The position numbers were made by a program, and so were the translations under genes. Below the pieces are notes generated by a model, which was not told the DNA's origin, made no database searches, and worked only from the letters and a program-made list of their open reading frames with translations. Shown here in pieces: positions 31,234-49,700 of a stretch of DNA of 64,000 nucleotides (position 1 is the first letter of the stretch; every line of letters begins with the position of its first letter). Source of the DNA: a virus (taxonomy: Duplodnaviria; Caudoviricetes); IMG/VR virus record IMGVR_UViG_2974692648_000001, positions 160,001 to 224,000 of that record, one strand, 5' to 3'.

Positions 31234-34200
31234 GAAAGATTTAAAAAGTCCCTCTCAGTCATCCGTCATTCCGGGAGCTGGTCCACAGCTCCCTAATGAA
31301 AATGACCGTGGGCGTATGCACTATATCTGGGAGATTTATGATCCAGATACAGTGAAACCGGGTGAAGCGCATCGTTATGTAGTTCCCCGAGAAAAAGAAA
31401 TCGTAATTGATCCTATCGCAGAAAAGAACTACGTGGTCACCCGCGTTAACTGGGAATCGGATTTAAAATCTACACTGGAACCTATCTTTGATAATGGTGA
31501 AGGCGATGGTGGTGCGGATGGCATCTTTGGCCTCCCTTCTGGTTTCCAAGGTGAGGCTGTCGTTGCAATTGACTACTCAGTCCGTCCTAACCGTGCTGTG
31601 ATCGATGGTCAGGTTATGGCTCCGGGCGCGGCGTACGCGTTGTTGTACGAAGGCAACACCGTAGGAGATGACGGCAAAGTTATCTCTGTTGTATACTCTA
31701 ACAACAACCAGTTAGTATCGAACCGCGTCCCAGTTACACTGGCAGCTTACCATGAGCTCAGCAACAAAGAGATCATGATTACTCAACCGTTCTCTGTGAA
31801 CCGTAATCCTGATGAGTTGCCGGATGGGGCACGCTGTACTTTGGTTTGGTACGATATCAACGGTAACGTGATTCCTAAAGCCCGTACGTTGTCAGTCCAA
31901 CACACTGCAATGATGCGTGACCACCAAGTTGGTAAACGTTACATCACCCGTGTCGAGCTCGTGGCTCCTTGGTTCCTGAACACCAGTGATCCTAAAACGC
32001 TGAACGTTCCAGTCAACACTATGTTGCAGAACTTAGCGTTCCGTGCAGTAGTGCACTACAGTGATGGTTCTAAGTCAGACGAGCTTAGTATTGACGGTCA
32101 AAAGATTCAGCTACTTGGGTTAAACGAACACAAACCATCTACACCTAGTCAGCGCGGTACGTTGACCTTGGTTTATAACTTAGATTCGGATGAGTACATC
32201 TACGAAGCACAACCTGGCAACCCTAACCAGTTCCGTGATTCTTACTGGATGTTGGCGGTACCGTTTGACGGCGCTTACTCTCCTAAACTCTACTCTTATC
32301 CGACTTGGGTAAACGGCCAATACATCCTGAAGCACTTCCTAACGGATTTAGACCGTAACTTCATGATCGACGCAACTGATCACGTACGTATTAATGAACT
32401 GTCCCCAGCTTTCCGTCCTACCACTTACGGTGTGGAACAAACGCTGGAACTGAACTGTCGTTTAAGTGACGTAGTTCCTACGTTCAAACCGATGATCATG
32501 CGTCAGTCTACAACATTCGTGTTGAAGACACCGGGTACTGAACCAGGCAGTAAGTTTGACGTTCGTTATTCTTACGATCAGGGTTCTTACTCGGACCCCA
32601 CGTTTAAGGCAGTTAACCAAGCAGACGGTCGTCAAGAAATCATCTTTGGTGGTGAATACGATGACATGGAAGATTGGTTAGAGCAGACGTACAATGCCGT
32701 TGAACCAGGGTTTAACCCGCAGCGTGAGAAAGGTCCTATTCGTCCTACTCACTTCGAAGTATTGGCGAGTTCGGGTAAAACATACGAATACGAAATCAGC
32801 CGTTATGCTGAAAAGATGTATTTGGATGTTCAAGAACCTCAAGGTCGGACTATCTACGTTCGCTGGATTCATGAATCCATTCAGGGTGATCGCTTGATTC
32901 TGGCTACCACTGGTATCTCTATTGATGTTACCGAAGGTCCAGATACAGAAACGCCAGTTCCAACTACTATCGAGTTTGACAGTTCGGTACCTAACAGTAT
33001 CGGTGAAATGCAAATCATCGAGTTCTCTGGACGTGTTTACGATCAGAAAGGTGCGTTGGTAACAGACGGTCTAACTAAGATGTTGGTTAAAGGTGGTGTG
33101 ATCTATGATTCGACACCTCGTAAGGTCGACATTGGTTTAGACGGGACATTCCGTTTCTTTACATGGTCTGAACGTGTTAGTGGTTCTACTGAAACCTTTG
33201 AATTTGATTTTGAAGTTGCAGGTGAGGAACCAGAATACTTCCTAAGCAAAGACATTCGTATCACGACCAACCCTGAACAACAAATTGGTGAGTTCTTCCC
33301 TTACACACCAACTAAGGCGAGCATTAACAAAGCGGGTCGAGCGTACGGTCAATTACTGGACGAAGAAGGTACTCCATTGCGAGACACTGAATTCTTCTCT
33401 TTTGTTGACAACGACTTGGACTCTATTCGCCGTGAGACTACGGATGAACAAGGTAAGTTCCTACTCACCCGTATCCACAAAGAAGGTCAAGATCGTACCA
33501 CGTTCCACATCGCAACTATGGGTGGTCGTAAGGAACATCTTTTACGCTGGGTGGAAACGGAACCATATGGTGACCGCATCATGCTTGATGTGGAAGACAT
33601 GGATTTCGTTGGCGAAGAACCTCTATCGGTTACAGGTCGTGTTTACGACCAATATGGTGACCTAGTAGTAGGCGTGCCGGTTAAAATCGGTTACGGTCCT
33701 TTGTGGGCTACTTACACTGATACTTTATCGGTTGAGAATGGTAAATACGAGCTAACGGGTTCTCCTAAAGAGCCGGGCATGAGTTACCAAGTGGTGGTCT
33801 GGACTGAGAACGATTTCTCCTTTGGTACAGTGGAATGGTCTGAAGCACCTAAGGTAGCCTTCGACATTGTCATGAGTCCGGATAATGCACCGGAAGCGCC
33901 GGCAGGCACCAGTGTTCGCATTTCGGGTCAGTTGGTGGATGAAGAAGGTAACAACTTCACAAGCGATAGCCGTACACCGGTTTACATGAAGGAACTGAAA
34001 GACGCGGACGAGACGATCATCTACGCTGGTTTCGATGGACGCTTTGAAGCCGAAGTAGGTCCTTACGGGGACTGGGAAGAAACCACGTTTGTGTTCCGTC
34101 TAGAAAACGGTAACCAAGGTAGTCACATGATTCGTTGGATGGGGGAACCTCCACGTCTTGCAAAGATTACATTTGACGATGGATTACCAGTAACGAGTAA

Positions 34201-35989
34201 AGTTGGTGAGTCAGTAACCCTAAGTGGCAAGACTTTCGACCAACATGATGAGGCTTACTTACCGGGCGTTCCATTTGAATTTGAAGTGGAGTTCGCAGGC
34301 ACTATCGAGAAAGCCCAATCAGACGGCAATGGCAACTGGACTTATGAAGCGGTAGGGGTTAAGTCGGGTAGTACGACTTACGGATTCTCTGCTAACAACC
34401 GTGCAGTGGGTTCTTACACCATCAACTTCACTGGTGACATAACAGTTACACCACTACCAAACGACGATCGTTTATTCCGTGTTCCTAACGGCGTTAACCG
34501 TACTATTGGCTGGTATGTGTTGGACGAGTCTGGTGCAGCTAAGGCGAACGTAACGCTGTCTTTGCGTCAAAAGGCAACGATCTATTCACCTGAACGCGAT
34601 CTCGGCACCATTACTACGGATGAACACGGCATTGCTACATTCGAAGCCCCTTATTTAGAAGGTGAAGAAAGTGGTGCTTACATCGCATCTCTGGGTGTGA
34701 AAGAAGCCACCGTCGTTGTTGGATGGAGTGATGAGTCGGGTATTAGTGTTACCATGACGCAAATGTCTGTACCTACGATTACCTACGGAAGAGAGTTGTT
34801 ATTCACTGGTGTAATGCTGGATGAAAACGGTGACCCGTTAATTCCAGATGACGTTAACACGGGCATTAGACTGGGTGGTTACGATCGCAACACGTTCGAA
34901 CACATCCCTGTTTCTATCCGCGGACTAGACCCTATTACGGGCGAGTTCACAGCGTACATGACCAGCGAGACTTTCGTTACTAAAGACATCGTGCTTTACA
35001 ACGAAGTGAACAACGAACTTCATACGGTCGAATGGGCTGCCCCAGATATTACCGGTGCGTACATTGAGTGGGATCTTTCAAGTTCACCTAGTGTGTTAGT
35101 TGCTGGTGAAACTTTCCCGTTCCGAGGTAAGATCTACCAAGCTAATGGTGAGCTATATACACCGCGTGCTCCAGAGACACTTTCTGTGACGACGGATGAA
35201 GGTCCTCATGCGGATGCAAACATCTACCAAGATGGTACAGTGATGTTAGAGATCACTAATGCATCAAGAGGTGTGCTGACTTACTCATTGTACCGTGACC
35301 CTGCGGCAACCATCGATGACTCTCTTGAGATCGAATGGGTAGAACAAGCGTCTGTGGGATTCACCCCATACTCATACAGTGAAGTCCCTCAAGGTGAATC
35401 TGGTGAAGTTTGGCTGATCTATAAGCAAGATGGTGACCAACCAATCCAATACCGTGATGTATTAGTGGGAGTTGGTAATCCGGGTCCGGATAACGTTCCT
35501 AGAACACTTACTACCGATGAATTCGGTATTGTGAAAGTCACGTTACCTTACAACGACACCGAATCAAGTAAGTCTATTGCCGGCATCTTAGGGGAAACGG
35601 TTCCACTAGCCATCCATAACCTCACATGGGTTGAGGATACTGTTAAAGTGGGTACTTCTTTCCGTGACCTATCAGTCCCTAGTAAAGTAGAGATTGGTGC
35701 GGAAGTGGAAGTCGTCGGTGAGGTGTTGGATAAATCCGGCGCTCTTACTGATTACAACGGAGTAGGTATTTACGATAAGACCACTCATACTTTCCACGAA
35801 AATGCCGTGAACTCGGATGGTAGCTTTAGTGTCAAACTAGGACCTTTGAACGAAGGTGACCATCATTTAGTAGTTTACACGGGTGCTGAAATTTCAGAGC
35901 ACGTTGTGCGTTGGGATTCAAGCTTTGTTAATTTTGACTCTGTTGGGATTGATGAAAGCTCTAACCGTGTGGCGTTAATCACTAAATAG
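31226..35989 (+). CDS. gp26-like virion protein (first ~570 aa) fused to ~1000 aa of Ig-like repeats
   Basis: ATG 31226 follows the RBS GAGGT. A non-repetitive N-terminal region (GAYSPKLYSYP) runs to ~32930, followed by G.v.DQ.G / TDE.G repeats. Confidence 0.8.
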   Translation: MFEKDLKSPSQSSVIPGAGPQLPNENDRGRMHYIWEIYDPDTVKPGEAHRYVVPREKEIVIDPIAEKNYVVTRVNWESDLKSTLEPIFDNGEGDGGADGIFGLPSGFQGEAVVAIDYSVRPNRAVIDGQVMAPGAAYALLYEGNTVGDDGKVISVVYSNNNQLVSNRVPVTLAAYHELSNKEIMITQPFSVNRNPDELPDGARCTLVWYDINGNVIPKARTLSVQHTAMMRDHQVGKRYITRVELVAPWFLNTSDPKTLNVPVNTMLQNLAFRAVVHYSDGSKSDELSIDGQKIQLLGLNEHKPSTPSQRGTLTLVYNLDSDEYIYEAQPGNPNQFRDSYWMLAVPFDGAYSPKLYSYPTWVNGQYILKHFLTDLDRNFMIDATDHVRINELSPAFRPTTYGVEQTLELNCRLSDVVPTFKPMIMRQSTTFVLKTPGTEPGSKFDVRYSYDQGSYSDPTFKAVNQADGRQEIIFGGEYDDMEDWLEQTYNAVEPGFNPQREKGPIRPTHFEVLASSGKTYEYEISRYAEKMYLDVQEPQGRTIYVRWIHESIQGDRLILATTGISIDVTEGPDTETPVPTTIEFDSSVPNSIGEMQIIEFSGRVYDQKGALVTDGLTKMLVKGGVIYDSTPRKVDIGLDGTFRFFTWSERVSGSTETFEFDFEVAGEEPEYFLSKDIRITTNPEQQIGEFFPYTPTKASINKAGRAYGQLLDEEGTPLRDTEFFSFVDNDLDSIRRETTDEQGKFLLTRIHKEGQDRTTFHIATMGGRKEHLLRWVETEPYGDRIMLDVEDMDFVGEEPLSVTGRVYDQYGDLVVGVPVKIGYGPLWATYTDTLSVENGKYELTGSPKEPGMSYQVVVWTENDFSFGTVEWSEAPKVAFDIVMSPDNAPEAPAGTSVRISGQLVDEEGNNFTSDSRTPVYMKELKDADETIIYAGFDGRFEAEVGPYGDWEETTFVFRLENGNQGSHMIRWMGEPPRLAKITFDDGLPVTSKVGESVTLSGKTFDQHDEAYLPGVPFEFEVEFAGTIEKAQSDGNGNWTYEAVGVKSGSTTYGFSANNRAVGSYTINFTGDITVTPLPNDDRLFRVPNGVNRTIGWYVLDESGAAKANVTLSLRQKATIYSPERDLGTITTDEHGIATFEAPYLEGEESGAYIASLGVKEATVVVGWSDESGISVTMTQMSVPTITYGRELLFTGVMLDENGDPLIPDDVNTGIRLGGYDRNTFEHIPVSIRGLDPITGEFTAYMTSETFVTKDIVLYNEVNNELHTVEWAAPDITGAYIEWDLSSSPSVLVAGETFPFRGKIYQANGELYTPRAPETLSVTTDEGPHADANIYQDGTVMLEITNASRGVLTYSLYRDPAATIDDSLEIEWVEQASVGFTPYSYSEVPQGESGEVWLIYKQDGDQPIQYRDVLVGVGNPGPDNVPRTLTTDEFGIVKVTLPYNDTESSKSIAGILGETVPLAIHNLTWVEDTVKVGTSFRDLSVPSKVEIGAEVEVVGEVLDKSGALTDYNGVGIYDKTTHTFHENAVNSDGSFSVKLGPLNEGDHHLVVYTGAEISEHVVRWDSSFVNFDSVGIDESSNRVALITK

Positions 35990-35999
35990 GAAATAATAA

Positions 36000-38900
36000 A
36001 TGGCAGGTATTATCAGAGGGAACTTACTCGATGCTGAAGGCAACGAAGTAAACCCGGGTAAACCCGTCACATTAAAGGCCGTCCGATCGGACGGCCTACC
36101 TGATGTGACTATCACGACCAATGATTCTGGTCATTGGTCCTTAGAAGTGAACGCTGAAGTCGACTCTCAGGTCGACTTCACTTTTATTTACAATGGGGTG
36201 GATGTAGGAGCACACGCAGTGCGTTTCATTGAAACAGCTGAAGTAGTAACCTTGCCGTATTCTAATTTCCGCGTTAAAGTGGGTAACACTGGTGTTATTG
36301 CATTTGCGGTAAAAGACGATCAAGGTAATGGGGTTCCGTATGCGGATGTAACTATCCACCGTGACGACGAAAACTCCGAACCAGTGACAACTCTAAGGAC
36401 TGACCAATTTGGTATCGTCACTTATACGGTTCCGCCTCACAACGTTTATGAACGTGTGGGGTTCTGGGCTAAGTCTGGAGGCACTACTGCGTTTTGGGGT
36501 GTTCAGTACGAAGATGGGGAAGAAGAGTTTGCTATTTCAATGGCTAACTTCCATTACACTGAGCAATTAGGTTTGGGTAATGAACTATTAGTCATGGGCG
36601 GTGGTAATGACCCTTGGGGATCGTTAATTTACAACCCACCTAAAGTTCTTTTTAATAAAGACACTCTGACTGAGGTCACTTACACCGAGATCTCTGATGA
36701 CTTAACCAACAACGTATTCCTAACAGTCGCGGGGTTATCTGAAGGTAATCACAACTTTGTGTTTGCAATGGAATCCGAATACCGTGAGTTTGTTGTTGAA
36801 TGTGGGGACTTCCAAGAAGAAACCATTAACACAGTAAAGCGCCATTACCCGACAGCGACCAAGTTTTTTGTAAACATGTGGTCAACGCTGGAAGCGACAG
36901 TTCAAGTGGATGGTGTGGACTATAAGCCTCACGGCGTAGTTTACATGACCGTTGAGAGAAACGAAGATTCGATACAATCTTTGGTTTGGCCTAATGGTAA
37001 ATTCGGTTATCCTGTTTCTGGTAAAAACGGTGACGTCTACCAATACACCATTAAGAACGGTGACGCGGAAGTTCTGGCAGAGCATCCGGCTTACGTCGTT
37101 GATGGTAGTGTAAAACTTTGTGAATACTCAGTGGATACCCTCCCTACCTTGGGCAAGGGCACAGTTGCGTTCGCTATTGTTGATGATGAAGAGAAGCCAG
37201 TGACTGGCGGGTTTACTCTCGTTAACCCTGGAACCAATGCATCTGAACAAGTTGAGGTTACTGACGAATTTGGTATCGTTGAAGTAGAAGTAAGTCGTGC
37301 TTCAGGTGAGAATGAAACATTCGTGTTGTGTAGTATCGGTGGGTTTGCTAGTGTGAATCACAAAGTTACCTTCACTGGCGCTCCTGTGGCTTCTGAGTTC
37401 CGTAACTTGGATATCCCAACACAAGGTGATACTGAGACTCCTATCACTGTAACAGGGCAAGTCTACGACCAAGGTGGAAGTGCATTTAAACCACCTCGAT
37501 TGGGTGTGTTTGATAAACAGAGCTTAACACATCAAGCATTCGACGCTTCTCTTATCGGAAGTGACGGTACGTTCTCTTTTGAGTATGGTCCTTTGTCACA
37601 AGGTCAACACGACCTCGTCTTAGGTTCTTCAGGTATCATCTCTGAGAAACGCACACATTGGTCCATTGGTTTCCCTGATGGTCTTCGCACCGAACGCATG
37701 AACTACTCCACATACCCTAACGCTTATGTTGGTGACGACGCTATTGTGGCAGTCCGTGCAAGTATCGTAGAAGACGGGTTACTGGTTCCTGTTGTCGGTG
37801 TTCCTGCGACAGCTTACATCAATGGCCCTGGTGTGACCGACGTTGAACTGGAAACTAAGTTAACTGACGCTAACGGTATTGCGGAATTCAACATCCCGGC
37901 TTCAGTCAATGAAACTACCTTAAACGGCAACTACGCCATCACGATGGTGGTCGGCCCTAACGTAGTTAGAACTGACATTACTTGGTTGGAAGGTTCTGAT
38001 GTAATATCAGGGTTTAGTGACTTGGATTACAACCCGACCATTAATACTGGTGGTGAACTGGTTTACACCTACCGTCCTTTAAACCAAGACGGCCAACCAA
38101 TGGCGGACCGTGGCGTTTACGTGACTCCGATAGATCATTTCCAGATTGGTGCTTACAATGCTACCATTTATGAAAATGCTGACGGGTCCTACACTGCGGA
38201 ATTCCCAACAATGGAAGACGGGACTTACGACGTTGTATTCCATTCAGGAAACGCTCAGGAACGCATGTCATTGACTTGGGGTGCGTATCCGGTAATCAAC
38301 CCTACCTCAGTACTACTTGACTTCCTATCACCTACCTCTGGTGTAGTAGGAAGTGACGCTATTGTGTCGGGTAAGATTGTGGATGAGAACGGTAGTGTGA
38401 TCCGACCTACCGCTGGAATGCGTTTAACTGTTCGTGATGAAACTGGCTCAGAAATCCACGTTAGGGTTAAACCTGATGGGTCTTGGTCATTCGCTGCGAA
38501 CTCCACCATCGCTAAGACTAAGTCTTACAACATCCTGCATAGCGGAACAAACCTCTATGTTCATCAGATCGATTTCCATGAAACTCCTACGGTTACTTTC
38601 ACCGACTACACTGGTGACAAAGTCGCTAAGACTCACGAGGCGATGTTAGCTACTGTGGTTAAGGATGTGGATGGTAACGGCATTCCAGGGATGTTGGTGG
38701 AGTACAAGAACGATGACACTCACTACGGTTCAGTAATCACTGATGAGTTTGGTATCGCGGAATTCACTATTCCGTTTAACCTAGAGACCATCGTTTCCCC
38801 TACAGTAGAACAGGATTATGTTGTTGCTCATATTAGCGACACTATCTCTGATGACGTTACTGTTCGTTGGGCAGGTGATGATGAAAACTCCGCAATTGAA

Positions 38901-41900
38901 ATCATTGACTTGGTGGTGGACTCGGATGTGTACGAAGGTACCACCGCTACCATCACTGGTAGGTTGATCGGTTCATTGGGTACGAACGATAACGCTTGGA
39001 TGTGGTTAACAGTCTTTAACAAGACAACGCTGGAAAGTAAGATGTTCAATAACAACATCATGCTGGACGGCACGTTTGAGATCGAAGTGGGTCCTTACCC
39101 TATGGGTCTTAACCAATTGGTTATTGCAACCAACAGTTACACCACTCCTATTTCGTTAGAAGTTACAGAAGCGCCTATCGTGCTTAAAGAACTACGCACA
39201 CTTCCTTATTCAACCAGTAAGGTTAAGTCTGCTGGAAGCGCTACGCTTGCCTATGCTGCTATTAACTCTCTAGATAAGGCAATGGTGGGTGAAACTGTAG
39301 AACTACGCTTAGCGAGCGATACAGGCATCCTGTTGGACACTGTAGTGACCGACAAATACGGTATTGCGGAATTCACTGTTCCAGACAACGAAAGTACACC
39401 GAACACTGGTGACGTTACGTACGTTGCTGTGAGTGGTGAGTTCTCAGCTCAGTCGACCGCATCTTGGGGTGAAACTGGTGTTGTAATTGAATCCCTAGAT
39501 GGGTTCGAGGCAACTGGGTTGGTTAGTAGTGGGGCTAAGGGTGTAATCAAACTGAGTCCTTTGAGTAAGCTTGTTTACGACTCAGGTTCTTTTGCACAAG
39601 ACCCTAATGGTAAACTAACTCCTTGGGAGACCATGACGCATGTCCGTGGTGCCACAATTAACGTCTTTGATAAAGTTACGTTGACTGCGATCCCACACAG
39701 TCGTGTGAATGTTGACGTTGACGTAGGCGGTGAGAAGTTTGACATTTACACAGTCGACGCTCTTCCAGATGGTTTCTACGATCTAGTTGTTTACTCAGAC
39801 AACGCAATCGAAACAGCAACCATGACTTGGGACACTGAAACTGAACTAGCGAAGCCAGATCGTTTCGTATTAACAAACAGCATTACTACAGCGTTTGTAC
39901 AAAACGACACAAACCAATGGTTGGATGGTGATGTTCAGTCTACGTCGGGTCCTGCTTTTGAACTGACGGGTTACGTAGAACCAGTAATGGTTGGTTCACA
40001 AGAACACCCAGTTTGGATCACACCTAAAGGACGATTCGTGACTAAACTGAGCGAACCTCGTTCTGAAGGTGTTCATTCGTACGACTTTAAGGTTGACGGG
40101 ACAGTGGTGGATACGAAGACTATCACGTTCTACGATAGCCTTAACGTAGAGCTACTTCCTTACACCACCCCTAACCCAGTTAAGGGCAAAGTTGCGACTA
40201 TCGCAGCTGTAGTTAAAGACGGTAGTGGTGAGGTGGTTCCGGGTGCTTGTGTGACACTTACCCCGGGTGCACGTATTACTTACGAACACTCAGTTAACCT
40301 CAATAGTGACTTTAATGGTTCTGTTGAAATGACGTGGGAGTACGACGAAGCTTATCCAGAGTTTACGTTAATCACTGGTTGTAACGGTAAGCGTAATGGG
40401 GAACGACAACTATTACGTTGGGTTGAATCTCCTGAACTCACTGGGGATAGTTTTGAAACACTGGTTGTGCCTGAGAAAGTGGTTGGGGATGACAAAGCAA
40501 CGATTACTGGTAAGATCTTAGATCAAGAAGGTAATCCTTACGCTAATGGTGAATTGTTGGTTTACAACAAAATCACTATGACGTCAACAGACCTTACTAC
40601 AGCCATCCAGCCAGATGGGACGTTCTCTACGGAATTGGGACCTTACCCATTCAACGCTTATGAGTTAATCTTCGCGACTCGTGGTAACGTAGATCGTCGT
40701 ACGGCAGTATGGGGTGGTAGTGGTATCTTAGCAAGTATCGAAATTGATCCTGATAGCGGCACACGTGGTCTATTAGGTGATACGGTTGAGATCTTTGGTA
40801 GTTCCACGGATACCATCGGGACACCCTTCACACCAGATGAAGGCATTTACACTCTGGATGTTGTGAATGACAAAAACGATGATGTTCTTCCAACGGTAAT
40901 CGATGCACAAGGTAACTGGTCCTTTAATGCGACTCATGACGTAAGTGAAACGGTCACGTATACCTTTAAAGATGGCGAAACAGTCCTAGCGACTCATGCT
41001 GTTGAGTTCTTTGAAGGCGCAGGCACTTTACGTAACTTCGACGCCCCTAGCACGGTTAAGGTGGGTCTGAATGAAGACTTCACATTAACGGGTAAAGTGT
41101 ACAACACCATGAACAAACTTTACCGACCAATCGTTGAAGAATTGTTCACACTGGTGCTGGATGAGACTACTGAGTTCCAAGGCACGATTCATACTGACGG
41201 TACATTCAGCGTGAAGCCGACGAACGATAAAGTGGAAACTCAAAGCTTCACCTTTAAGGTCGGAGAAGACACTTACGACACGGTAGACATCAAGTGGTGT
41301 CAGACTGTAAGCTTAGCGTTTAACGCAGACTCTCAACCTAAAGCTGTTGTCGGTGATGATGCTTATGTGTCAATCCGAGTGGTGGATGAGAACGGTGAAA
41401 GCGTTACCGGACGCACAGTGGAGTTCTATGAAGGTGAAGTCACAGGTGAACCTCTAGATACTGAGGACGTCTACAGTGAGACCTACATTGGTTACTGGCC
41501 TAAAGAAGCCACTGAAGTGGGTGACGTAGTAATCACTGCTAAGTTGGGTGGTATCCAAGATACCTTGACGCTGTCTTGGGTAGGTAACGATCCTAAGATC
41601 GCGGCTGGATTTGGTCGTAAGACCTCAAGAACTGGTTACGTGGTTGACACTAAACCGGCTTCTGGTACGACAGCAACACTACGAGGTACAGTTGTAGACC
41701 AAGACGGTACGCCGTTAGCAGGCCCGCAATTCCTTAAAGTGTTTGATCAAGGGTCGTTTGACTTAACGGATTACTCTGCACAAGTTCAGGCTGATGGTAC
41801 GTTCGATATCGAACTCCCAGTCAAACCAGATGGTACTTACAACTACAGTCTTGTTACTGAAGGCAATGTGGGTTCTATCAGAGGTATTTCTTGGGACGCG

Positions 41901-44900
41901 GAAAACGAAGACCTGAAAGCGGTTAAGTTGGATGCGAGTGTTCCTACTCAGGTTAACGTTGCTAGTACACATACTCTCCAAGGTACTATCTTGGATAGCG
42001 CCGGTGACACCATTGCTCCAGCTAAGAGTATTACGGTTTACGTAAACAGTAGTGAAGGTAACACCTACGAGTTCACAGTTACACCGGACGGTACATGGTC
42101 GTTTGCTTACACCTTTAGCAATGAAGGGGATGTGTTGTTCGACTTCCACACTTACCAAGGTAAGTACTTGGGGTCTGTCACCATCACGGTTGAAGAAGCA
42201 GCGCCGGTATTCACTTCTATTGAGTGGGTTGGTGAACAACCTACAGAAGGGATGGTCGGTGAGTCTGTGAAACTGACTGCGGTTACTTTAGATCAATACG
42301 GAAATCCGATCGATGGCGTTTCGGTACGACCATTCATTAATGGTGAGCCACAAAACGCTTTCCGTTCTCCTCCGGGTGGTTCTTGGAGTCTGGATTACAC
42401 TTCAACTGAAGCAGGCCCAGTACTTTACGAATTTGGTTGGGAACCAGACGTTGCTCGTATTGGGCATACTGTTGAGTGGAAGCTTCCAGTGGATTCAATC
42501 GAGGTCATGCGTTATTCTGACTCTAACGCAGTACCGGGACAAACCGCGTTTGTACCTTTCGCTGCACTAGATAGTTCAGGTAAGGGCATTGCGGGTGTTC
42601 CTATTGCTCTTCACTTGGATTCAGCATCAGGAACGTTATTGACCACGGTAACTACCAACGAGTTTGGTATTGCTGAGTTCAGCGTTCCTCAGAAAGGAAG
42701 TAACGCTAACCGTTTGATCTACGCTAAATACGGCGATATTGTAAAAGAGCGTCGTCAATGGTGGGCTAACGATCCACTTACACCTCCAACTGGATTCGCT
42801 AACTTAACGGTTACTAACCCAGTACCTGAAGGTGAGCGCGCACTAGTTAGTGTTCAAGCAGTAGCAAGTGACGGTAGTCCTCGTCCGTTGTCCACGGTAG
42901 GCATCTTTGATCCGGAAATATTGGATCAGGTATTATTTAACCGTGTAACCACTGGTGAGTCTAAATCTCACTTACTGGACTTTGCGCATAGCGGAACAGG
43001 AACTAAGACTTACATCTTAACTACTGACGCTGGTCGTCAAGAGTTCTCGGTGACATGGGAAAGTAAACCGGCAGTCACGCCAAACGACTTAGTGTTCGAC
43101 GCGGATTCTCCGGAATCATTAGTAGTGGGTGAATGGAACACGTTAAGCGGTAAATTAGCGGTAGACGGGGTTCCAGTAACTGAACTGGATCACTACGTTA
43201 AGGCGACAATGACTGTGGGTGGTAAGGAGAGCTACCTAGACTTGGATGTTAGCAAAGGGACGTTCCGTGTACTGGTTAAACCAACAGCGGCAGGAACAGA
43301 AAACTACGACTTCAAACTTAATGGTACGAGCGTTGTGGTAAAGTCCTTCCGTCACAGTGACAACGTGACGTTAAACGACGTGAGTGTGTTATCGGTCACC
43401 ACACCTCAGATAGGTGACCCTGTGGTACTGAGTACTGTAGTGAAAGATAGCGAAGGGAACCCTATCCCTAAACTTCCGGTGACGTTTAAACTAGCCGGCG
43501 GGAACACACTCGCAACATTAAACACGGACGTCAAAGGAATGGTAACACATTCAGTGCCTTACCAATCCGGGACAATGTCTTCTGACTTTGAAATTAAAGT
43601 GGGAAGCGTCGTAGAAACAGTAACGGCAACTTGGAAGCCAACTAATGAACTTATCGACGTGGCGTTTGAAGGGCTAACTACCCCGGCAACGGTTTACGAT
43701 GGTGAATTAGCGAAAGTAACAGGTAAGTTAATCAACCAACAAAACAATGGGACATCAACAACTAAGTTTGAGATTTACCATCGTGGGTTATTAACGCACA
43801 CCAGTCATGCCACCGATGTACAGCCGGATGGTACGTTCGACTTTAATATTGGTCCGTTTGCAGTAGGGGTGAATGAGTTCTACTTCATCATCAACGGTAA
43901 ACGCATTGAACGTAGCATCGAGTACATTGAACGCACTGACCCAGAACTGAATCGTGTTGAGTTAGATGAGGGTAATCCTACGTCAGGGTTCTCTGGCGAA
44001 AACTTAACCATCAGTGGTAAAGGTTACGATCAATACGGTGATCCAATTGCAAACGCTCAGGTTCAATGGGCGATCTCTGGTGATGCACAACCTGCATTAA
44101 CCACAGGTCCAGATGGTTCATTCAGCACAACAGTTACGCACAACACCAACGCTAGCATCACCTACCGATTCGGTGGCAATGATGGTATACCGGTGGCTAA
44201 CTTGAGCATTGCGTGGACCGTAGCGACATCAAACACGATGGCGTTTGTTGGTACATCGCAATGTAAGCAAACTCAAAACAACGAGGCTAACATTGAGTTG
44301 TACGTGAAAGACCAAGACGGTGTTGGAGTTCAAGATGCTCAGATCGTAATTAGAGATCAGGGTTCAGAAACTCCTATTGCGACACTGACAACTAACGTAC
44401 GTGGTTTAGCGTCTTACGCTATCCCTTATGAAGCAGGTAACGATAACCGTACTATCGAAGCGACTCTGGATCAACTGACCGAGACGTTAGACATTACGTG
44501 GTATCCTGCGGTGACTAAGTATGCGACCGGGTTTACTCGTCTCTACATGGATAACCGCCCTGCTTCAGGAAAATCAACGACAGTACGTGGTCAGTTAGTT
44601 GATCAAGATGGCAATCCAATCACAACGGCTTCAACGTTGGGTATCTTTAACACGATTACCTTGGAGAACTATGATTACATCGATCGACTACAACCAGACG
44701 GTACGTTTGAGTTTGAGTATGGTCCTGAGGCTGACAGTAACTACCCTATCTCGCTCTTCACCGATGCTGGTCATTTCGATGAAACGATCATTTGGGATTT
44801 GAATAACGCTGACATGAAACGTGTGGTGTTTGACAACAACATTCCTAGAATGACGAAGAGTAACGGTAGAGTTAGTCTGCACGGTACGTTTGTGGACAGT

Positions 44901-46583
44901 GATGGTAACCCATTCACTCCGTTGTCTAATACCGCGTGTACAGCCACTGGGGATAATGGTGACGCCTTTACGGGTACCATTAAAACGGATGGTACGTTCG
45001 AAGTTGAAGTATGGTTCCCTGAGTACCGTACTCACAAAGTCGACATATCAGCACCAGATAAGACTTACCTAGGAACTTACTCTCTGGTAGTGACCGCAGA
45101 CAACATCATTGATGAAATGCCTTACTCAGCTAACGTTGCAACCACGGGTCAACCGGCAACAATGGCAGTGAAAGTCGTGAACCAAAGTGATGTTGCGGTA
45201 GAGGACACTGTAGTTACTGCTCACTTGGGTGACCCAAGTAATCCGGCAGTGGTGACAGCGAACACCGACGCCAGAGGTATTGCGACCATGAATGTTCCGG
45301 CTCCAGCGGAAACAGGTAAAACGACGGTCTACTTTAAGAACGGTACTTCGGTACTTGACGCAGAGGTGGATTGGAAACCTGTGGAAGAATTGGTCGGTAA
45401 GACATTCGAAGATGTTGTGACGTCATCTCCAGCTGAATACGGCCAACCAGCTACAATCAGTGGTAAGCTGTTAGATCAGAACGGGGACGTGTTACCGGGT
45501 CGTAACCTTGGTGTGTATCACTTGAACGGAGGTACGTTGTTGAATACCACTGTAGTGAAGAACGATGGAACAGGGTTTACTCTGGAAGTTGGTCCTTTAA
45601 CTACAGGAACACATCAGTTAGTGTTGTTCACGGGTAATGCTGAACGTTATGAAGAGATTACATGGAACGTGGAAATTCCTCCTATTGGAAAACTAGAAAC
45701 GGTCTCGTTCTCTTCAACGAAGGCCCCAAGTGGTCAACCTGCCAAAGTTCACTTCTACGTCCTTGCACCTAACTACGGTCGCGTCAAAGACGTTCCGGTA
45801 ACTGCACGTTGGGGTAATGCTCAGGGTGAAGTTATTGCAACAGAAATGACGAACTCTGAAGGCTTGGTAAGTTACACCTTACCGGGAACGAATGAGTCTG
45901 GTGATCGACTAGGCACACATACGGTTTACGTTGAAGTTGGTGGTAAGTCCATCACGGATACCGTGGAGTGGGTGGACGATGAATTGATCGGTGAATCCAT
46001 CATTGAAATCGACAACATGCAGAACATCGAATACGGGGAGAAATTCCTAGTTCGCATGACGGTCAGAGATCAAAACAACGAACCTATCCGTAATCCGGGA
46101 TACAGTCTGTTCCAACCTAAATCTCGTCAAGAGGTTATCAATCTGGTTCGAATCGACTACCCGGGTGATGATGTGGTGTTCCAAGCAACCGCACAATCAA
46201 GTTCAGTAACGGAGTTGTATGTGGGTACTGATAATGACTATCGTGTTATCCCTGTTAACTGGGATTACGCTAACGACATCATTAAACCAGTGACCGCAGC
46301 GATCGATGTTGATGTTCCTGAGTATCATCCTGTGGGTGTTGACTCAATAGTGAAAGGTAAAGTGCTCGACACCAATGGTTTAGAGTTCCGACCAACCACT
46401 ATACTGAAGCTGAAAGCACGTCGTGTTAGCGATAATTCAGAAACTGAGTTGACGGTCATGCCAGATGGCGAATGGGCGTTTGTTGTGAACGAACCTACTG
46501 AGTCTGAAGTAGTGTACAAGTTAATGTACGGCAACGTAGAATTAATGGAATACACGGCTAAGTTCGGTACTCCTGCAAGCTAA
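36000..46583 (+). CDS. Giant Ig-like (Big_1/invasin-type) repeat protein, 3527 aa; putative virion fibre/adhesin
   Basis: Recurring D..G.Pv.G.....TDEFGIAEF and vtG.v.DQ.G....DGTF...GP motifs, about 100 aa per domain; no signal peptide. Confidence 0.8.
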   Translation: MAGIIRGNLLDAEGNEVNPGKPVTLKAVRSDGLPDVTITTNDSGHWSLEVNAEVDSQVDFTFIYNGVDVGAHAVRFIETAEVVTLPYSNFRVKVGNTGVIAFAVKDDQGNGVPYADVTIHRDDENSEPVTTLRTDQFGIVTYTVPPHNVYERVGFWAKSGGTTAFWGVQYEDGEEEFAISMANFHYTEQLGLGNELLVMGGGNDPWGSLIYNPPKVLFNKDTLTEVTYTEISDDLTNNVFLTVAGLSEGNHNFVFAMESEYREFVVECGDFQEETINTVKRHYPTATKFFVNMWSTLEATVQVDGVDYKPHGVVYMTVERNEDSIQSLVWPNGKFGYPVSGKNGDVYQYTIKNGDAEVLAEHPAYVVDGSVKLCEYSVDTLPTLGKGTVAFAIVDDEEKPVTGGFTLVNPGTNASEQVEVTDEFGIVEVEVSRASGENETFVLCSIGGFASVNHKVTFTGAPVASEFRNLDIPTQGDTETPITVTGQVYDQGGSAFKPPRLGVFDKQSLTHQAFDASLIGSDGTFSFEYGPLSQGQHDLVLGSSGIISEKRTHWSIGFPDGLRTERMNYSTYPNAYVGDDAIVAVRASIVEDGLLVPVVGVPATAYINGPGVTDVELETKLTDANGIAEFNIPASVNETTLNGNYAITMVVGPNVVRTDITWLEGSDVISGFSDLDYNPTINTGGELVYTYRPLNQDGQPMADRGVYVTPIDHFQIGAYNATIYENADGSYTAEFPTMEDGTYDVVFHSGNAQERMSLTWGAYPVINPTSVLLDFLSPTSGVVGSDAIVSGKIVDENGSVIRPTAGMRLTVRDETGSEIHVRVKPDGSWSFAANSTIAKTKSYNILHSGTNLYVHQIDFHETPTVTFTDYTGDKVAKTHEAMLATVVKDVDGNGIPGMLVEYKNDDTHYGSVITDEFGIAEFTIPFNLETIVSPTVEQDYVVAHISDTISDDVTVRWAGDDENSAIEIIDLVVDSDVYEGTTATITGRLIGSLGTNDNAWMWLTVFNKTTLESKMFNNNIMLDGTFEIEVGPYPMGLNQLVIATNSYTTPISLEVTEAPIVLKELRTLPYSTSKVKSAGSATLAYAAINSLDKAMVGETVELRLASDTGILLDTVVTDKYGIAEFTVPDNESTPNTGDVTYVAVSGEFSAQSTASWGETGVVIESLDGFEATGLVSSGAKGVIKLSPLSKLVYDSGSFAQDPNGKLTPWETMTHVRGATINVFDKVTLTAIPHSRVNVDVDVGGEKFDIYTVDALPDGFYDLVVYSDNAIETATMTWDTETELAKPDRFVLTNSITTAFVQNDTNQWLDGDVQSTSGPAFELTGYVEPVMVGSQEHPVWITPKGRFVTKLSEPRSEGVHSYDFKVDGTVVDTKTITFYDSLNVELLPYTTPNPVKGKVATIAAVVKDGSGEVVPGACVTLTPGARITYEHSVNLNSDFNGSVEMTWEYDEAYPEFTLITGCNGKRNGERQLLRWVESPELTGDSFETLVVPEKVVGDDKATITGKILDQEGNPYANGELLVYNKITMTSTDLTTAIQPDGTFSTELGPYPFNAYELIFATRGNVDRRTAVWGGSGILASIEIDPDSGTRGLLGDTVEIFGSSTDTIGTPFTPDEGIYTLDVVNDKNDDVLPTVIDAQGNWSFNATHDVSETVTYTFKDGETVLATHAVEFFEGAGTLRNFDAPSTVKVGLNEDFTLTGKVYNTMNKLYRPIVEELFTLVLDETTEFQGTIHTDGTFSVKPTNDKVETQSFTFKVGEDTYDTVDIKWCQTVSLAFNADSQPKAVVGDDAYVSIRVVDENGESVTGRTVEFYEGEVTGEPLDTEDVYSETYIGYWPKEATEVGDVVITAKLGGIQDTLTLSWVGNDPKIAAGFGRKTSRTGYVVDTKPASGTTATLRGTVVDQDGTPLAGPQFLKVFDQGSFDLTDYSAQVQADGTFDIELPVKPDGTYNYSLVTEGNVGSIRGISWDAENEDLKAVKLDASVPTQVNVASTHTLQGTILDSAGDTIAPAKSITVYVNSSEGNTYEFTVTPDGTWSFAYTFSNEGDVLFDFHTYQGKYLGSVTITVEEAAPVFTSIEWVGEQPTEGMVGESVKLTAVTLDQYGNPIDGVSVRPFINGEPQNAFRSPPGGSWSLDYTSTEAGPVLYEFGWEPDVARIGHTVEWKLPVDSIEVMRYSDSNAVPGQTAFVPFAALDSSGKGIAGVPIALHLDSASGTLLTTVTTNEFGIAEFSVPQKGSNANRLIYAKYGDIVKERRQWWANDPLTPPTGFANLTVTNPVPEGERALVSVQAVASDGSPRPLSTVGIFDPEILDQVLFNRVTTGESKSHLLDFAHSGTGTKTYILTTDAGRQEFSVTWESKPAVTPNDLVFDADSPESLVVGEWNTLSGKLAVDGVPVTELDHYVKATMTVGGKESYLDLDVSKGTFRVLVKPTAAGTENYDFKLNGTSVVVKSFRHSDNVTLNDVSVLSVTTPQIGDPVVLSTVVKDSEGNPIPKLPVTFKLAGGNTLATLNTDVKGMVTHSVPYQSGTMSSDFEIKVGSVVETVTATWKPTNELIDVAFEGLTTPATVYDGELAKVTGKLINQQNNGTSTTKFEIYHRGLLTHTSHATDVQPDGTFDFNIGPFAVGVNEFYFIINGKRIERSIEYIERTDPELNRVELDEGNPTSGFSGENLTISGKGYDQYGDPIANAQVQWAISGDAQPALTTGPDGSFSTTVTHNTNASITYRFGGNDGIPVANLSIAWTVATSNTMAFVGTSQCKQTQNNEANIELYVKDQDGVGVQDAQIVIRDQGSETPIATLTTNVRGLASYAIPYEAGNDNRTIEATLDQLTETLDITWYPAVTKYATGFTRLYMDNRPASGKSTTVRGQLVDQDGNPITTASTLGIFNTITLENYDYIDRLQPDGTFEFEYGPEADSNYPISLFTDAGHFDETIIWDLNNADMKRVVFDNNIPRMTKSNGRVSLHGTFVDSDGNPFTPLSNTACTATGDNGDAFTGTIKTDGTFEVEVWFPEYRTHKVDISAPDKTYLGTYSLVVTADNIIDEMPYSANVATTGQPATMAVKVVNQSDVAVEDTVVTAHLGDPSNPAVVTANTDARGIATMNVPAPAETGKTTVYFKNGTSVLDAEVDWKPVEELVGKTFEDVVTSSPAEYGQPATISGKLLDQNGDVLPGRNLGVYHLNGGTLLNTTVVKNDGTGFTLEVGPLTTGTHQLVLFTGNAERYEEITWNVEIPPIGKLETVSFSSTKAPSGQPAKVHFYVLAPNYGRVKDVPVTARWGNAQGEVIATEMTNSEGLVSYTLPGTNESGDRLGTHTVYVEVGGKSITDTVEWVDDELIGESIIEIDNMQNIEYGEKFLVRMTVRDQNNEPIRNPGYSLFQPKSRQEVINLVRIDYPGDDVVFQATAQSSSVTELYVGTDNDYRVIPVNWDYANDIIKPVTAAIDVDVPEYHPVGVDSIVKGKVLDTNGLEFRPTTILKLKARRVSDNSETELTVMPDGEWAFVVNEPTESEVVYKLMYGNVELMEYTAKFGTPAS

Positions 46584-46592
46584 TGTAAAGTA

Positions 46593-46634
46593 ATAACTCA
46601 GGTGGGTTAGACCCACCTGAGTTATCTTTATTTT
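46593..46634 (+). terminator. Intrinsic terminator between the two giant genes
   Basis: ATAACTCAGGTGGGT-TAG-ACCCACCTGAGTTAT followed by CTTTATTTT. Confidence 0.85.
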
Positions 46635-46730
46635 CCACTTATTTAAACCCCACTGAGAATTTATTGAACGAAACGCGTAACTGGGTTCTCCCTTGGCCCG
46701 GTGTGTATAACAAGCAAAAGGAAGATACTA

Positions 46731-49700
46731 ATGACGGGTGTTATTAGAGGAAACTTGTTGAAAGGTGACACGACGGTAAAACCTGATGGACCCGTCAGTC
46801 TTACCTTGAAACGAGACGATGGACTTCCAGATACGGAAGTCGTAACTGATGCTGATGGTAACTGGCAAGTCGAGGTTGAGTCGGCAACGAAAAAGAAAGT
46901 CAAATTTAGTTTCTTTGACAAAAGCAAACCGCTTGGTGAACACGAAGTGGAGTTTGTCAAGGAATTGGAAATCATTCCTGCATCCGGTCGATTCACTAAA
47001 GAAAACCTGAATGGTTTCCACGGTCGATTAATTGATCAAGATCTGAATCCGATCTCTGATGCGGAGATCACTTACAAACGTAAGTACGACGACGCTGAAA
47101 ACTGGATCGAAAGCAGCGTCACAACAAACGAACACGGTTACTTCAACGTAATGTGGGGGATTAACGAACTGGAGCCTAAGAAGCTTTACATTCAAATCTC
47201 GTACGGGGATTTGAGTGATGAGTTTACTTACGACTTTTCTGATGGTTCTTTAACCACTTATTTTGTTGACCCTGTGGGACAAGAAGAGTTAGCCCCGGGT
47301 GAGACCTTGAAAGTAGTCGGACGTGCATTCCCGAATTACGGTTCAGGTGACGTTAACCTCACCGAGGATGCGTTCCTTGGTCACTTTGTGGACAACCCAC
47401 TTTATTTCGTGGATAACAGTGAATCATTAGAGAGTGGCGGTAAGTTCTCCATCGATGTGGATGGGACACACGCCACTTTAATGAGTAACAACGGTAACCT
47501 AGAAGTAAAACCACCTGTGGTTCAGGGGTTAAAGCCGCCCGCGATTATGCGATTTGGTGTACGCAGCGTGCTTATCAACAACCCGGATCTGCATTACAGT
47601 GGAAGTTTCCCACTTACTTGCTCGGTGTATACAGCGGATTACAAAAAGCCGAATGTGGATTCTAGTGAGTTGGAATTCTACGATTTCAATAACTCCCCGC
47701 ATTCTTACGGCAGTTACCTGACAGAAGGTAATGACCGTTGGTATGCTGGTGAAGACTTTGTTAGTATTCGGGAAGGTGGGTATAAACACACAGTACTTTG
47801 TCGTGGCCGACCACTAGCCGATAATTACGTCCGCTGTTTTACTGACGGTGATATGCTTAACTTGGTAGGCGGCACTAGAAACTGGGTCCATGTGGGCAAC
47901 GAAGTCGTAAACCGTCTTGCGTTGACTGACAACCAAGGAAATCCAAGATCGGGAGTAACGGTTTCTTTCTTCAAAGGAGATTCGGAAACAGCGTTCCGTC
48001 AAGCAACCACAGACGACCTAGGTTTAGTGGAAATCACGCTCCCTACGGAGAGTGAAGTAACTCGCACCTTTATGCGTGCAGAAGCAGATGGTGTTGAAGC
48101 AACATGGTACAATGACTGGGTCCCAGTCACACTAGAAGTTGTAGAGAGTGTTTCTACACCTTTCCTTCCGGTTTATTTTGACCGAGATTTCTTCATGTTT
48201 TTAACTACTCCTTTGGGTAAAGATGGTCAACCATTTAACCCTCAGGACAGTGGTGTATACGAAGGTCTCACGATTCAGTTATTAGACCGTTGGTACGTTC
48301 GTCCTTACCTCAGTAAGCGCGATGGGGCTTGTGAATACCTCCTTCCACTACAAGACGATACCAACCCAATTAAAGGCGGTCGGTTATCTATGACCTGTGA
48401 CCACTTCCACACAGAAAAAGATGTCGTGGTTGGTAAGCGTGTGGGATTAAACCCACTGCCTTACGCTCAGGGAACAAGTGTTGCTAATCAAGACCTAACC
48501 ACTGGGTGGTTGTTGTTGGACGACGCTCTGGAACCAGTAGAAGGTGGTGTGATTGATGTCTGGATCGATGATCGAAGTGGTGCAGTAGATCATAAACTAA
48601 CCACCGACAAATACGGGATTGTGGAAATCACAGTTCCTTTTAAAGAAGGTGAGTTGGTACGCAAAGCTTACGCTAAACACGGGACGGATCAATTTGAACT
48701 AGAATTGATGTGGACTGAGAAAAACGCAGCTTGTCAAATTACGATCACTCCTCCTCAAGGTGACATCGGTGTCGATGAACTCGTCACGTTTGACGTACGT
48801 TCGTTAGATCAACACGGTAACGAAGTTAATGAAGAATCCCCAGTTCTCTTTAACATGTATGGCTTCTCTAACCTCGGTGTTTACGACAAAGTCACACACA
48901 AAGTCGAATACCTTGGGTCAGACCGCACTACCGATGTAAACGTACAGACTAACGATAAAGTTGGTGAGCAAGAGTTGGTGTTCTTTACCGAAGCTGGATT
49001 TAAAACGGTTAAGTTCAATGCCATCCAACGTCCGGTTCGTAATACAGATCGCTTAGAGTACAGCTCGAGTACCGCATTCCCTGATTCTGAAGCCTTGGTC
49101 GGCTTCCGTGTTTCTGATGATAATGGGCAAGGTGTTCCGGGTGAAACTGTCGAGATTCGATACTTAGGTGAAGAAGTCGATAAGTTAGTAGGCAATACTT
49201 GGATTAAGGTTCACGAAGGTGGGTCTGACGAAGTCATCACAACTTTGACTACGGATGAGTTCGGTATTGTCGAATTCCCTACCACCATGCCAACGGATAC
49301 CGGAACTCATAGCTGGAGTGGTACAACGGTAAGTGCGGGTCCTAAAGACAGAAAGGGTAAAACAGACGTTTACGTCCATTGGCGTGACGGGATTATCACT
49401 GACCTGAAGAATGTGAAGTCGATCCCGGTTACCGAGTCGGGTGAGAAAACGGTGTTCTCCGCAGAGTTGTGGGAAAACGTCAGTGCTGACAACCAAGTCA
49501 TCACTGAAGACAACATGCACATTCACGTTTACATAAAAGAACTAGATCGTACTCTAGAGAACACGGGCACTTTCTATAAGGGTCATAAAGTTTGTTCAAT
49601 AGATGAGGTCTTACCGGACGGCACATACCACGCGGTACTCTATGTTCAGAACGCACAACACGAGGTTACTTTATCGTGGGGTTCTGTGGCAGGTGTTAAT

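Follow-up and report, generated by a model that had tools for sequence, protein, structure and literature searches.

We analyzed a 64,000-nucleotide stretch of a tailed-phage genome (hereafter the window; positions 160,001 to 224,000 of IMG/VR record IMGVR_UViG_2974692648_000001), in which a gene for a baseplate protein homologous to gp26 of phage phiKZ is followed by two very large genes for proteins built from immunoglobulin-like (Ig-like) domains. We refer to the first product as the anchor and to the other two as giant 1 and giant 2 (Table 1), whose Ig arrays presumably serve as long adhesive fibers. The anchor continues for 24 residues beyond its last complete domain, and each giant opens with a module (the N-module) that appears to begin at the second strand of the same kind of fold. 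Profile comparisons suggest that one Ig-like domain unit has been divided between the genes, and we assign a probability of roughly 55% to the reading that the anchor tail completes the fiber N-module in trans by strand complementation.

Table 1. Features of the anchor–fiber locus (positions in the window)
Feature	Position	Strand	Evidence and remarks
phiKZ gp27 homologue (DUF7193)	28651..31233	+	PF23823 1059.6 bits; phiKZ gp27 synteny; upstream neighbor of the anchor
Anchor protein	31226..35989 (mechanical open reading frame from 31205)	+	phrog_3430 E 1.2e-140; phrog_27497; BLASTP to phiKZ gp26; annotation of relatives
Orphan 24-residue tail DSSFVNFDSVGIDESSNRVALITK	35915..35986	+	Follows last complete domain; Trp codon 35912–35914; positional equivalent of the next domain's A/A' segment
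Stop and spacer	35987..35999	+	TAG, 10 nt with AGGAAA Shine-Dalgarno-like site, two TAA codons in the frame of giant 1
Giant fiber 1	36000..46583	+	3527 residues, about 36 Ig-like domains by length; N-module residues 1–78 (36000–36233), starts at B strand
Terminator-like hairpin, 15 pairs	46593..46625	+	Between giant 1 and giant 2
Giant fiber 2	46731..54383	+	2550 residues, about 26 Ig-like domains by length; own ribosome-binding site; N-module residues 1–77 (46731–46961)

The Gene Boundary

The likely true start of the anchor is the ATG at 31226 (MFEKDL...), as annotated in relatives, with the mechanically called open reading frame (ORF) beginning upstream; that of giant 2 is the ATG at 46731 (MTGVIRG...), again per related annotations, within a mechanical ORF from 46701. 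The C-terminus of the anchor reads ...HVVRWDSSFVNFDSVGIDESSNRVALITK*. Giant 1 begins MAGIIRGNLLDAEGNEV...RSDGLPD, with MAGIIRGNLLDAEG as its opening, and giant 2 begins MTGVIRGNLLKGD...RDDGLPD. The two N-modules are paralogues that score 46.6 bits against each other versus 22.3 bits for the best internal repeat, in agreement with the original prediction that the giants' N-termini resemble each other more than they resemble internal repeats. In the first ten residues, which form the B strand, 8 of 10 positions are identical, compared with 23 of 70 in the remainder. At its other end, giant 1 terminates in a complete domain (hidden Markov model (HMM) positions 3–110 of 114) followed by a single residue, bearing out the claim that the 3527-residue protein carries no orphan strand. 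As whole proteins, giants 1 and 2 both pass the Pfam gathering cut-offs for Big_1 (PF02369; 107.3 and 121.3 bits, cut-off 34.9) and CarboxypepD_reg (PF13620; 65 and 71.7 bits, cut-off 32.3).

Between the genes, the TAG of the anchor (35987–35989) is followed by 10 nt and then by the ATG of giant 1 at 36000, in the +1 frame, and consecutive TAA codons (35994–35999) lie in the frame of giant 1 immediately ahead of its ATG. Simple readthrough had been dismissed because stop and start are in different frames, and the stops indeed block both frames. The identical stop, 10-nt spacer, and start occur in 4/4 Aphroditevirus-type GenBank records, and contigs assembled from 4/4 sequencing runs of four different studies bridge the junction with zero indels and without any substitution listed from 35910 to 36193, so the split is genuine and not a sequencing frameshift. 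An Rfam scan of the junction returned no family at threshold, and a look-up of RNA data sets listed none that covers it. In Tidunavirus, the corresponding genes lie 125–129 nt apart, with stem-loops between them. As read from the sequence, this layout suits translational coupling and rules out a fusion product; giant 1 is probably coupled to the anchor in this way, and giant 2 would be translated from its own ribosome-binding site behind the terminator-like hairpin.

A Domain Unit Divided between Anchor and Fibers

As a reference we used a 114-position profile of the 19 internal domain copies most like the N-termini, each taken with the 32 residues that precede it. On this profile, residues 4–83 of giant 1 correspond to positions 35–113, and the anchor tail corresponds to positions 3–27, with five residues further beyond. 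When ten anchor tails were compared profile to profile, they aligned with internal columns 10–32 (P 0.0029; 1 of 300 column shuffles scored as high), a span that runs from the Trp of the preceding last strand to just ahead of the B strand. Twelve N-modules, which we term long-type, start at approximately column 34. The proposal that the anchor ends with the first strand only, and that the giants start at the second, therefore holds on the profile. The spacing also agrees, as the distance from the last Trp to the Gly of the I.G strand is 31 residues across the gene break versus 29–32 at 13 internal junctions.

Several observations assign the A segment to the domain that follows it. The segment is included in 132 of 153 internal domain copies, and in 8/9 anchors the first Ig-like domain after the gp26 part has its own A segment (from HMM position 11–12) with no Ig-like domain preceding it. 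Consistently, the eight fibers whose last domain is of the same type end 0–19 residues past that domain. The A segment thus appears to belong to, and would pack on, the following domain. Because the domain unit includes this segment, the anchors have one segment too many and the fibers one too few. Tail end and module start meet within 1–2 profile columns, as expected if an Ig-like domain unit were divided between anchor and fibers, and both break points that we describe (A'–B here and B–C in the section on Tidunavirus) are predicted to fall in turns.

The tail has been conserved in length and in sequence. It comprises 24 residues after the last Trp in 7/7 distinct Aphrodite-type anchors, including two (P0158 and P0159) that are only 54–56% identical overall and end in ...SN.V.LI[TS][KE]. 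Among five phages, 12 synonymous variants versus 1 amino-acid variant fall in the final 16 codons of the anchor, and the preceding 24 codons show 12 synonymous versus 10 amino-acid variants; by this codon comparison, the tail is under purifying selection. We surveyed motifs in 29 proteins of the fiber gene cluster (55,894 residues; seven phages and four further contigs). SN..[AVI]LI occurs once in each of 9/9 anchors and nowhere else in the set, and R.DG..D, which lies at residue 29 of giant 1, is found in 19 of 20 fiber N-modules and nowhere else.

In the mechanism that we favor, a gp26-type baseplate protein would have been extended by an Ig arm ending in the A/A' segment of a further domain, the remainder of which is not in that gene, and each downstream fiber gene would open with an Ig-like module of about 75 residues starting at strand B. 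The anchor tail would lie down as the missing edge strand of the fiber N-module, a β-strand complementation in trans by which either giant would be tethered to one anchor copy. The outer baseplate of Gorgonvirinae jumbo phages would thereby have a modular joint for attaching fibers. Judging from the sequence relationships above, the fibers are probably attached to the baseplate by completing a fold that they share with it.

A Second Split Position in Tidunavirus

The anchors of VP4B, pTD1, and a further homologue (P0160) end in an additional partial domain. The first fiber of VP4B and of pTD1 (L004 27603–32762 and L009 27607–32787) ends in two tandem partial domains that consist of strands A and B only. 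Seven such A+B tails align with profile columns 19–44 (P 4.3e-5; 0 of 200 shuffles as high), and eight N-modules of a short type start at approximately column 46. Since the A+B tails reach column 44 and the short modules start near column 46, this second split position is again complementary. phiKT1028 is an exception to this pattern: the terminal tail of its anchor aligns only weakly (P 0.016), and its first fiber has no tail.

The two tandem A+B ends suggest a fiber that carries sockets for two more. Extending this thought, we tentatively consider it possible, at odds well short of even, that Gorgonvirinae build branched fiber trees from separately encoded Ig-array proteins, with two socket classes (cut at A'/B and cut at B/C) and swappable adhesins. 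In VP4B and pTD1, the anchor would then hold one long-type and one short-type fiber and the first fiber would hold two more, giving four donors for four acceptors. In Aphroditevirus, a multicopy anchor would display a mixture of the two giant fibers. Recombination at the conserved module would swap in new adhesins and leave the baseplate untouched. We also tried a rule by which donors and acceptors match in number. It fits VP4B and pTD1 (one A-only and three A+B donors; one long and three short modules) and was dropped as evidence because it fails in phiKT1028 and in Aphroditevirus, where one donor meets two acceptors.

Distribution of the N-Module

When 1.84 billion representative proteins were searched with a profile, the full module turned up only at the extreme N-terminus of fibers of this lineage, in 15 of the best 150 matches; a sixteenth N-terminal match (P0059) is an unrelated repeat protein. 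Whole-genome census found two modules in the present genome, two each in TSL-2019 and phiKT1019, four each in VP4B and pTD1, and five in phiKT1028, all of which stand at the starts of successive genes located between anchor and terminase. A quick tree of 118 domain copies placed all 16 N-modules in one 19-row subtree (Shimodaira–Hasegawa-like approximate likelihood ratio test (SH-aLRT) 92) together with three internal copies, and every cis copy most similar to an N-module retains an A segment. On these sequence criteria, the N-module is a distinct, narrowly distributed family that both giants share. No wider relatives emerged from metagenome scans or from a scan of bacterial genomes, and a search of IMG/VR for relatives returned only the same five phages.

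Two additional proteins were noted along the way. A 1510-residue ORF at approximately 117.4–121.9 kb of the same genome, outside the window, holds two weaker internal copies (E 8e-4 and 0.002) and no N-module. A giant-1-like protein of 3712 residues (P0009), encoded on a 244-kb contig, has the same N-module and ends 24 residues after its last Trp, which equals the length of the anchor tail; this C-terminal tail, compared alone with the A segment, gave no significant alignment (P 0.084, placed elsewhere).

The Anchor and Its Genomic Context

The virus record containing the window is 237,509 bp with terminal repeats. The DNA of the window is 75–95% identical to Vibrio phages 2 TSL-2019, USC-1, Aphrodite1, and phiKT1019, with pTD1 and VP4B as remoter matches, and in GenBank the nearest records are placed in Gorgonvirinae, genus Aphroditevirus. 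The window is from a phiKZ-like Vibrio jumbo phage of the Aphroditevirus type. Its gene order (tail tube, sheath / gp28-like, DUF7193, anchor, giant 1, giant 2, terminase) mirrors that of the phiKZ counterparts (gp30, gp29 / gp28, gp27, gp26, and gp25, the terminase), and the anchor sits between the gp27 homologue and the terminase, as phiKZ gp26 does. Klebsiella phage Miami, the nearest outgroup examined, encodes a plain 571-residue gp26 homologue followed by a terminator and then a terminase-type gene. Because gp26 is plain in Miami and a terminase-type gene comes next, we regard the Ig arm and the fiber genes as a lineage-specific insertion.

The anchor is composed of a gp26-type baseplate part (approximately residues 1–575; 31226–32950) and, behind it, roughly ten Ig-like domains that form an arm. 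The baseplate part aligns with phiKZ gp26 (552 residues) at 26% identity over 530 residues (BLASTP E 3e-47), and a gp26-type homologue is present in 287 phage records; by sequence and synteny, the anchor is a true gp26 homologue. The Ig arm, of about 1000 residues, has no homology to the C-terminus of phiKZ gp26. In the structural work on phiKZ (PMC13250141), each of six star lobes in the outer baseplate contains five gp26 and two gp27, gp26 cross-links components, and the gp26 C-termini insert into a gp157 ring or touch other gp26 copies; both that study and PMC13742148 describe gp27 as an outer-baseplate scaffold. By analogy, the anchor would be located in the outer baseplate in many copies. 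This bears on the prediction of two alternative fibers on one anchor, which is plausible; relatives carry two to five such fibers. If the anchor is multicopy like phiKZ gp26, the fibers may coexist on one virion and need not exclude one another.

Region 31226–36524 of the window is of mosaic ancestry. The gp26 part of the anchor is 98.6% identical to phage 2 TSL-2019, and the last 115 residues of the anchor share 97% identity with USC-1 and 75% with TSL-2019. Within giant 1, residues 1 to about 130 are USC-1/Aphrodite1-like, and residues from about 130 to 175 are TSL-2019-like.

The coding sequence of the giant 1 N-module contains a perfect 20-bp palindrome, GGCCGTCCGATCGGACGGCC (core 36077–36096 within 36054–36121), which encodes AVRSDGL. 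The 237.5-kb genome contains no second copy. Giant 1 carries the palindrome once in 5/5 Aphroditevirus-type records, and it is absent from giant 2 and from Tidunavirus. Approximately 66 nt around the palindrome are nearly invariant in DNA among five phages, and the stretch formed a separate high-depth contig piece in one run (X2). Folded as RNA, the 96 nt at 36040–36135 reach −40 kcal/mol (z −6.0), a stability equaled by 0 of 200 shuffles. The palindrome may act as a handle for recombination or as a hairpin with a regulatory function. A terminator-like hairpin at 36155–36180 (11 pairs followed by CTTTTATTTA), some 52–60 codons into giant 1, may be due to chance, with 13 such sites versus 9.8 expected.

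Alternative Explanations

Several observations weigh against completion of the N-module by the anchor tail. A profile of the A strand only was not significant on its own (E 1.5) and ranked the anchor tail third among 274 ORF tails. Numbers of donors and acceptors are unequal: one donor type faces two acceptors in Aphroditevirus, and one or two donors face five acceptors in phiKT1028, whose first fiber (the orthologue, L034 11898–16808) ends straight after a complete domain and is tailless. Tidunavirus anchors have the SN..LI peptide 37–47 residues from the C-terminus, VP4B and pTD1 are close relatives and not independent samples, and a shortened B strand may persist in the short-type modules, as MAFFT can also place the first residues of some of them on strand B. 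Furthermore, the CarboxypepD_reg, SusC, and PF08400 leads mean that the N-module could be complete alone. Residues 1–85 of giant 1, taken by themselves, match CarboxypepD_reg from model position 2 (13.9 bits; residues 5–51 on model 2–46 of 82) and Big_1 (18.8 bits; residues 8–77 on model 24–93 of 93), both below cut-off. The strand at which the N-module starts is also the first strand of a solved, stand-alone N-terminal domain of SusC (E 0.48), although sequence searches of the Protein Data Bank yielded marginal matches only. A neighbor cluster in the ESM-Atlas, useful only as a lead, carries PF08400, the prophage tail-fiber N-terminal family (score 0.89). We considered, as an unlikely explanation that nevertheless merits serious attention, that the N-module is an autonomous, complete β-sandwich of the CarboxypepD_reg or tail-fiber N-terminal type with a docking site other than the tail, for instance the Ig arm or another baseplate protein, and that the tail has a different partner, such as a neighboring anchor or a baseplate component. 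The excess of acceptors over donors would suit this explanation, as would the contacts of the phiKZ gp26 C-termini with the gp157 ring or other gp26 copies (PMC13250141). However, all family matches are sub-threshold, and PF08400 gave no match on either N-module at E up to 10. An autonomous module also leaves unexplained why tail and module meet within 1–2 columns at two different split positions and why every most similar cis copy has an A segment, and the tail ends an arm of roughly 1000 residues for which the C-terminus of phiKZ gp26 has no homologous counterpart.

The partial domains might instead be an evolutionary scar, left when cassettes of terminator, ribosome-binding site, and N-module recombined into a longer Ig-repeat gene; they would then have no role in binding, and the giants may not be on the anchor at all. 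The mosaic region, in which anchor and giant 1 change nearest relative within a few hundred residues, the 66-nt invariant stretch as a possible recombination handle, and the plain gp26 followed by a terminase-type gene in Miami are all compatible with such a history. A neutral remnant should decay, however, whereas the tail has kept its length in 7/7 distinct Aphrodite-type anchors and its motif across two genera. No fused form was found either: 0 of 163 collected proteins contain both motifs together, and no gp26-type protein of 2791–5000 residues was recovered, a range that lies below the roughly 5100 residues expected of the fusion. Because the tail is under selection, a pure scar is improbable. 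An assembly error, or recoding by read-through or frameshifting to yield one fused protein, draws no support beyond the 10-nt gene distance and is refuted for practical purposes by the conserved stop, spacer, and start, the indel-free contigs, the stop codons in both frames with no Rfam element, and the separation of the Tidunavirus genes by 125–129 nt with stem-loops. Weighing these explanations together, we retain strand complementation between anchor tail and N-module as the best account of the locus.

Implications

The periphery of the chimallivirus baseplate and its fibers are described as largely unmodelled in PMC13742148. A split-domain joint, if real, would make this periphery accessible to tests. 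A literature search for strand complementation in phage fibers, or for a split Ig domain as a phage fiber joint, found no paper, with British spelling and subscription journals outside its reach. A term search of PMC7400271 and PMC10587174 returned no description of fibers in micrographs, and no virion structure or proteome of an Aphroditevirus was found. If strand complementation is correct, interchangeable and very long adhesive fibers (up to about 3900 residues in relatives) would hang on a conserved baseplate protein by way of a small split domain. Such a joint would explain the cassette of two to five fiber genes between gp26 and terminase beside a fixed anchor, would give a role to the largest genes of aquaculture-relevant Vibrio phages, and would extend the strand complementation of bacterial pili to cytoplasmic virion assembly.

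Comparison with Known Systems

Chaperone–usher pili such as Fim and Pap are assembled by donor-strand complementation and exchange, in which a strand from another chain completes an incomplete Ig-like fold. The resulting joint between fiber parts is non-covalent yet very stable. The phage locus shares the complementation logic of the pilin analogy that had been drawn for it, with a partial Ig-like fold and a strand from another polypeptide, here proposed from sequence. The analogy does not extend to the details. The pilus acceptor misses the C-terminal G strand, whereas the phage modules reach HMM position 113 of 114 and lack the N-terminal A/A' segment (or A and B). In pili, the strand is donated by an N-terminal extension of the following subunit; in the phage, the candidate donor strand lies in the C-terminal tail of another protein, the anchor. 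The phage joint would assemble in the cytoplasm and would link an anchor to different fibers, with no homopolymer formed, and no chaperone or usher Pfam family was found among the 42 window ORFs scanned. Because strand, polarity, compartment, and helper proteins differ, we do not consider the phage joint a member of the chaperone–usher system.

A further likeness is to the PF08400 and CarboxypepD_reg-type domains, including the N-terminal extension of SusC (PDB 9hfj). As leads, these also open a protein with an I.G.v.D..G.P strand motif, and an N-terminal β-sandwich serves in attachment or regulation. Unlike stand-alone CarboxypepD_reg-type domains, most cis copies in the present family (the 132 of 153 noted above) carry an extra preceding strand segment.

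Among related phages, the DUF7941 "fiber cloud" of the chimallivirus Goslar offers a parallel in which separate fiber proteins are joined by a predicted intermolecular β-sheet. In PMC13742148, AlphaFold predicts head-to-tail joining by a contiguous sheet of this kind at the peripheral baseplate. That system, as described there, differs in its domain family and in having a disordered linker that docks on a globular N-domain; its proteins form homo- and hetero-oligomeric filaments, with no split repeated Ig domain.

The fibers of phiKZ itself (gp131, gp133, gp134, and gp135) offer another parallel. According to PMC13250141, these paralogues share a gp131-like N-terminal docking region and attach to the outer baseplate at the star lobes that also hold gp26, comparable to the conserved N-terminal attachment part of the fibers described here. 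In phiKZ, a six-helix bundle and gp131-like domains dock the fibers beneath gp130 (PMC13250141), whereas the fibers of the Vibrio phage are Ig arrays of 2550–3527 residues that share an Ig-like module for attachment, with the extended C-terminus of a gp26 homologue as the proposed socket partner.

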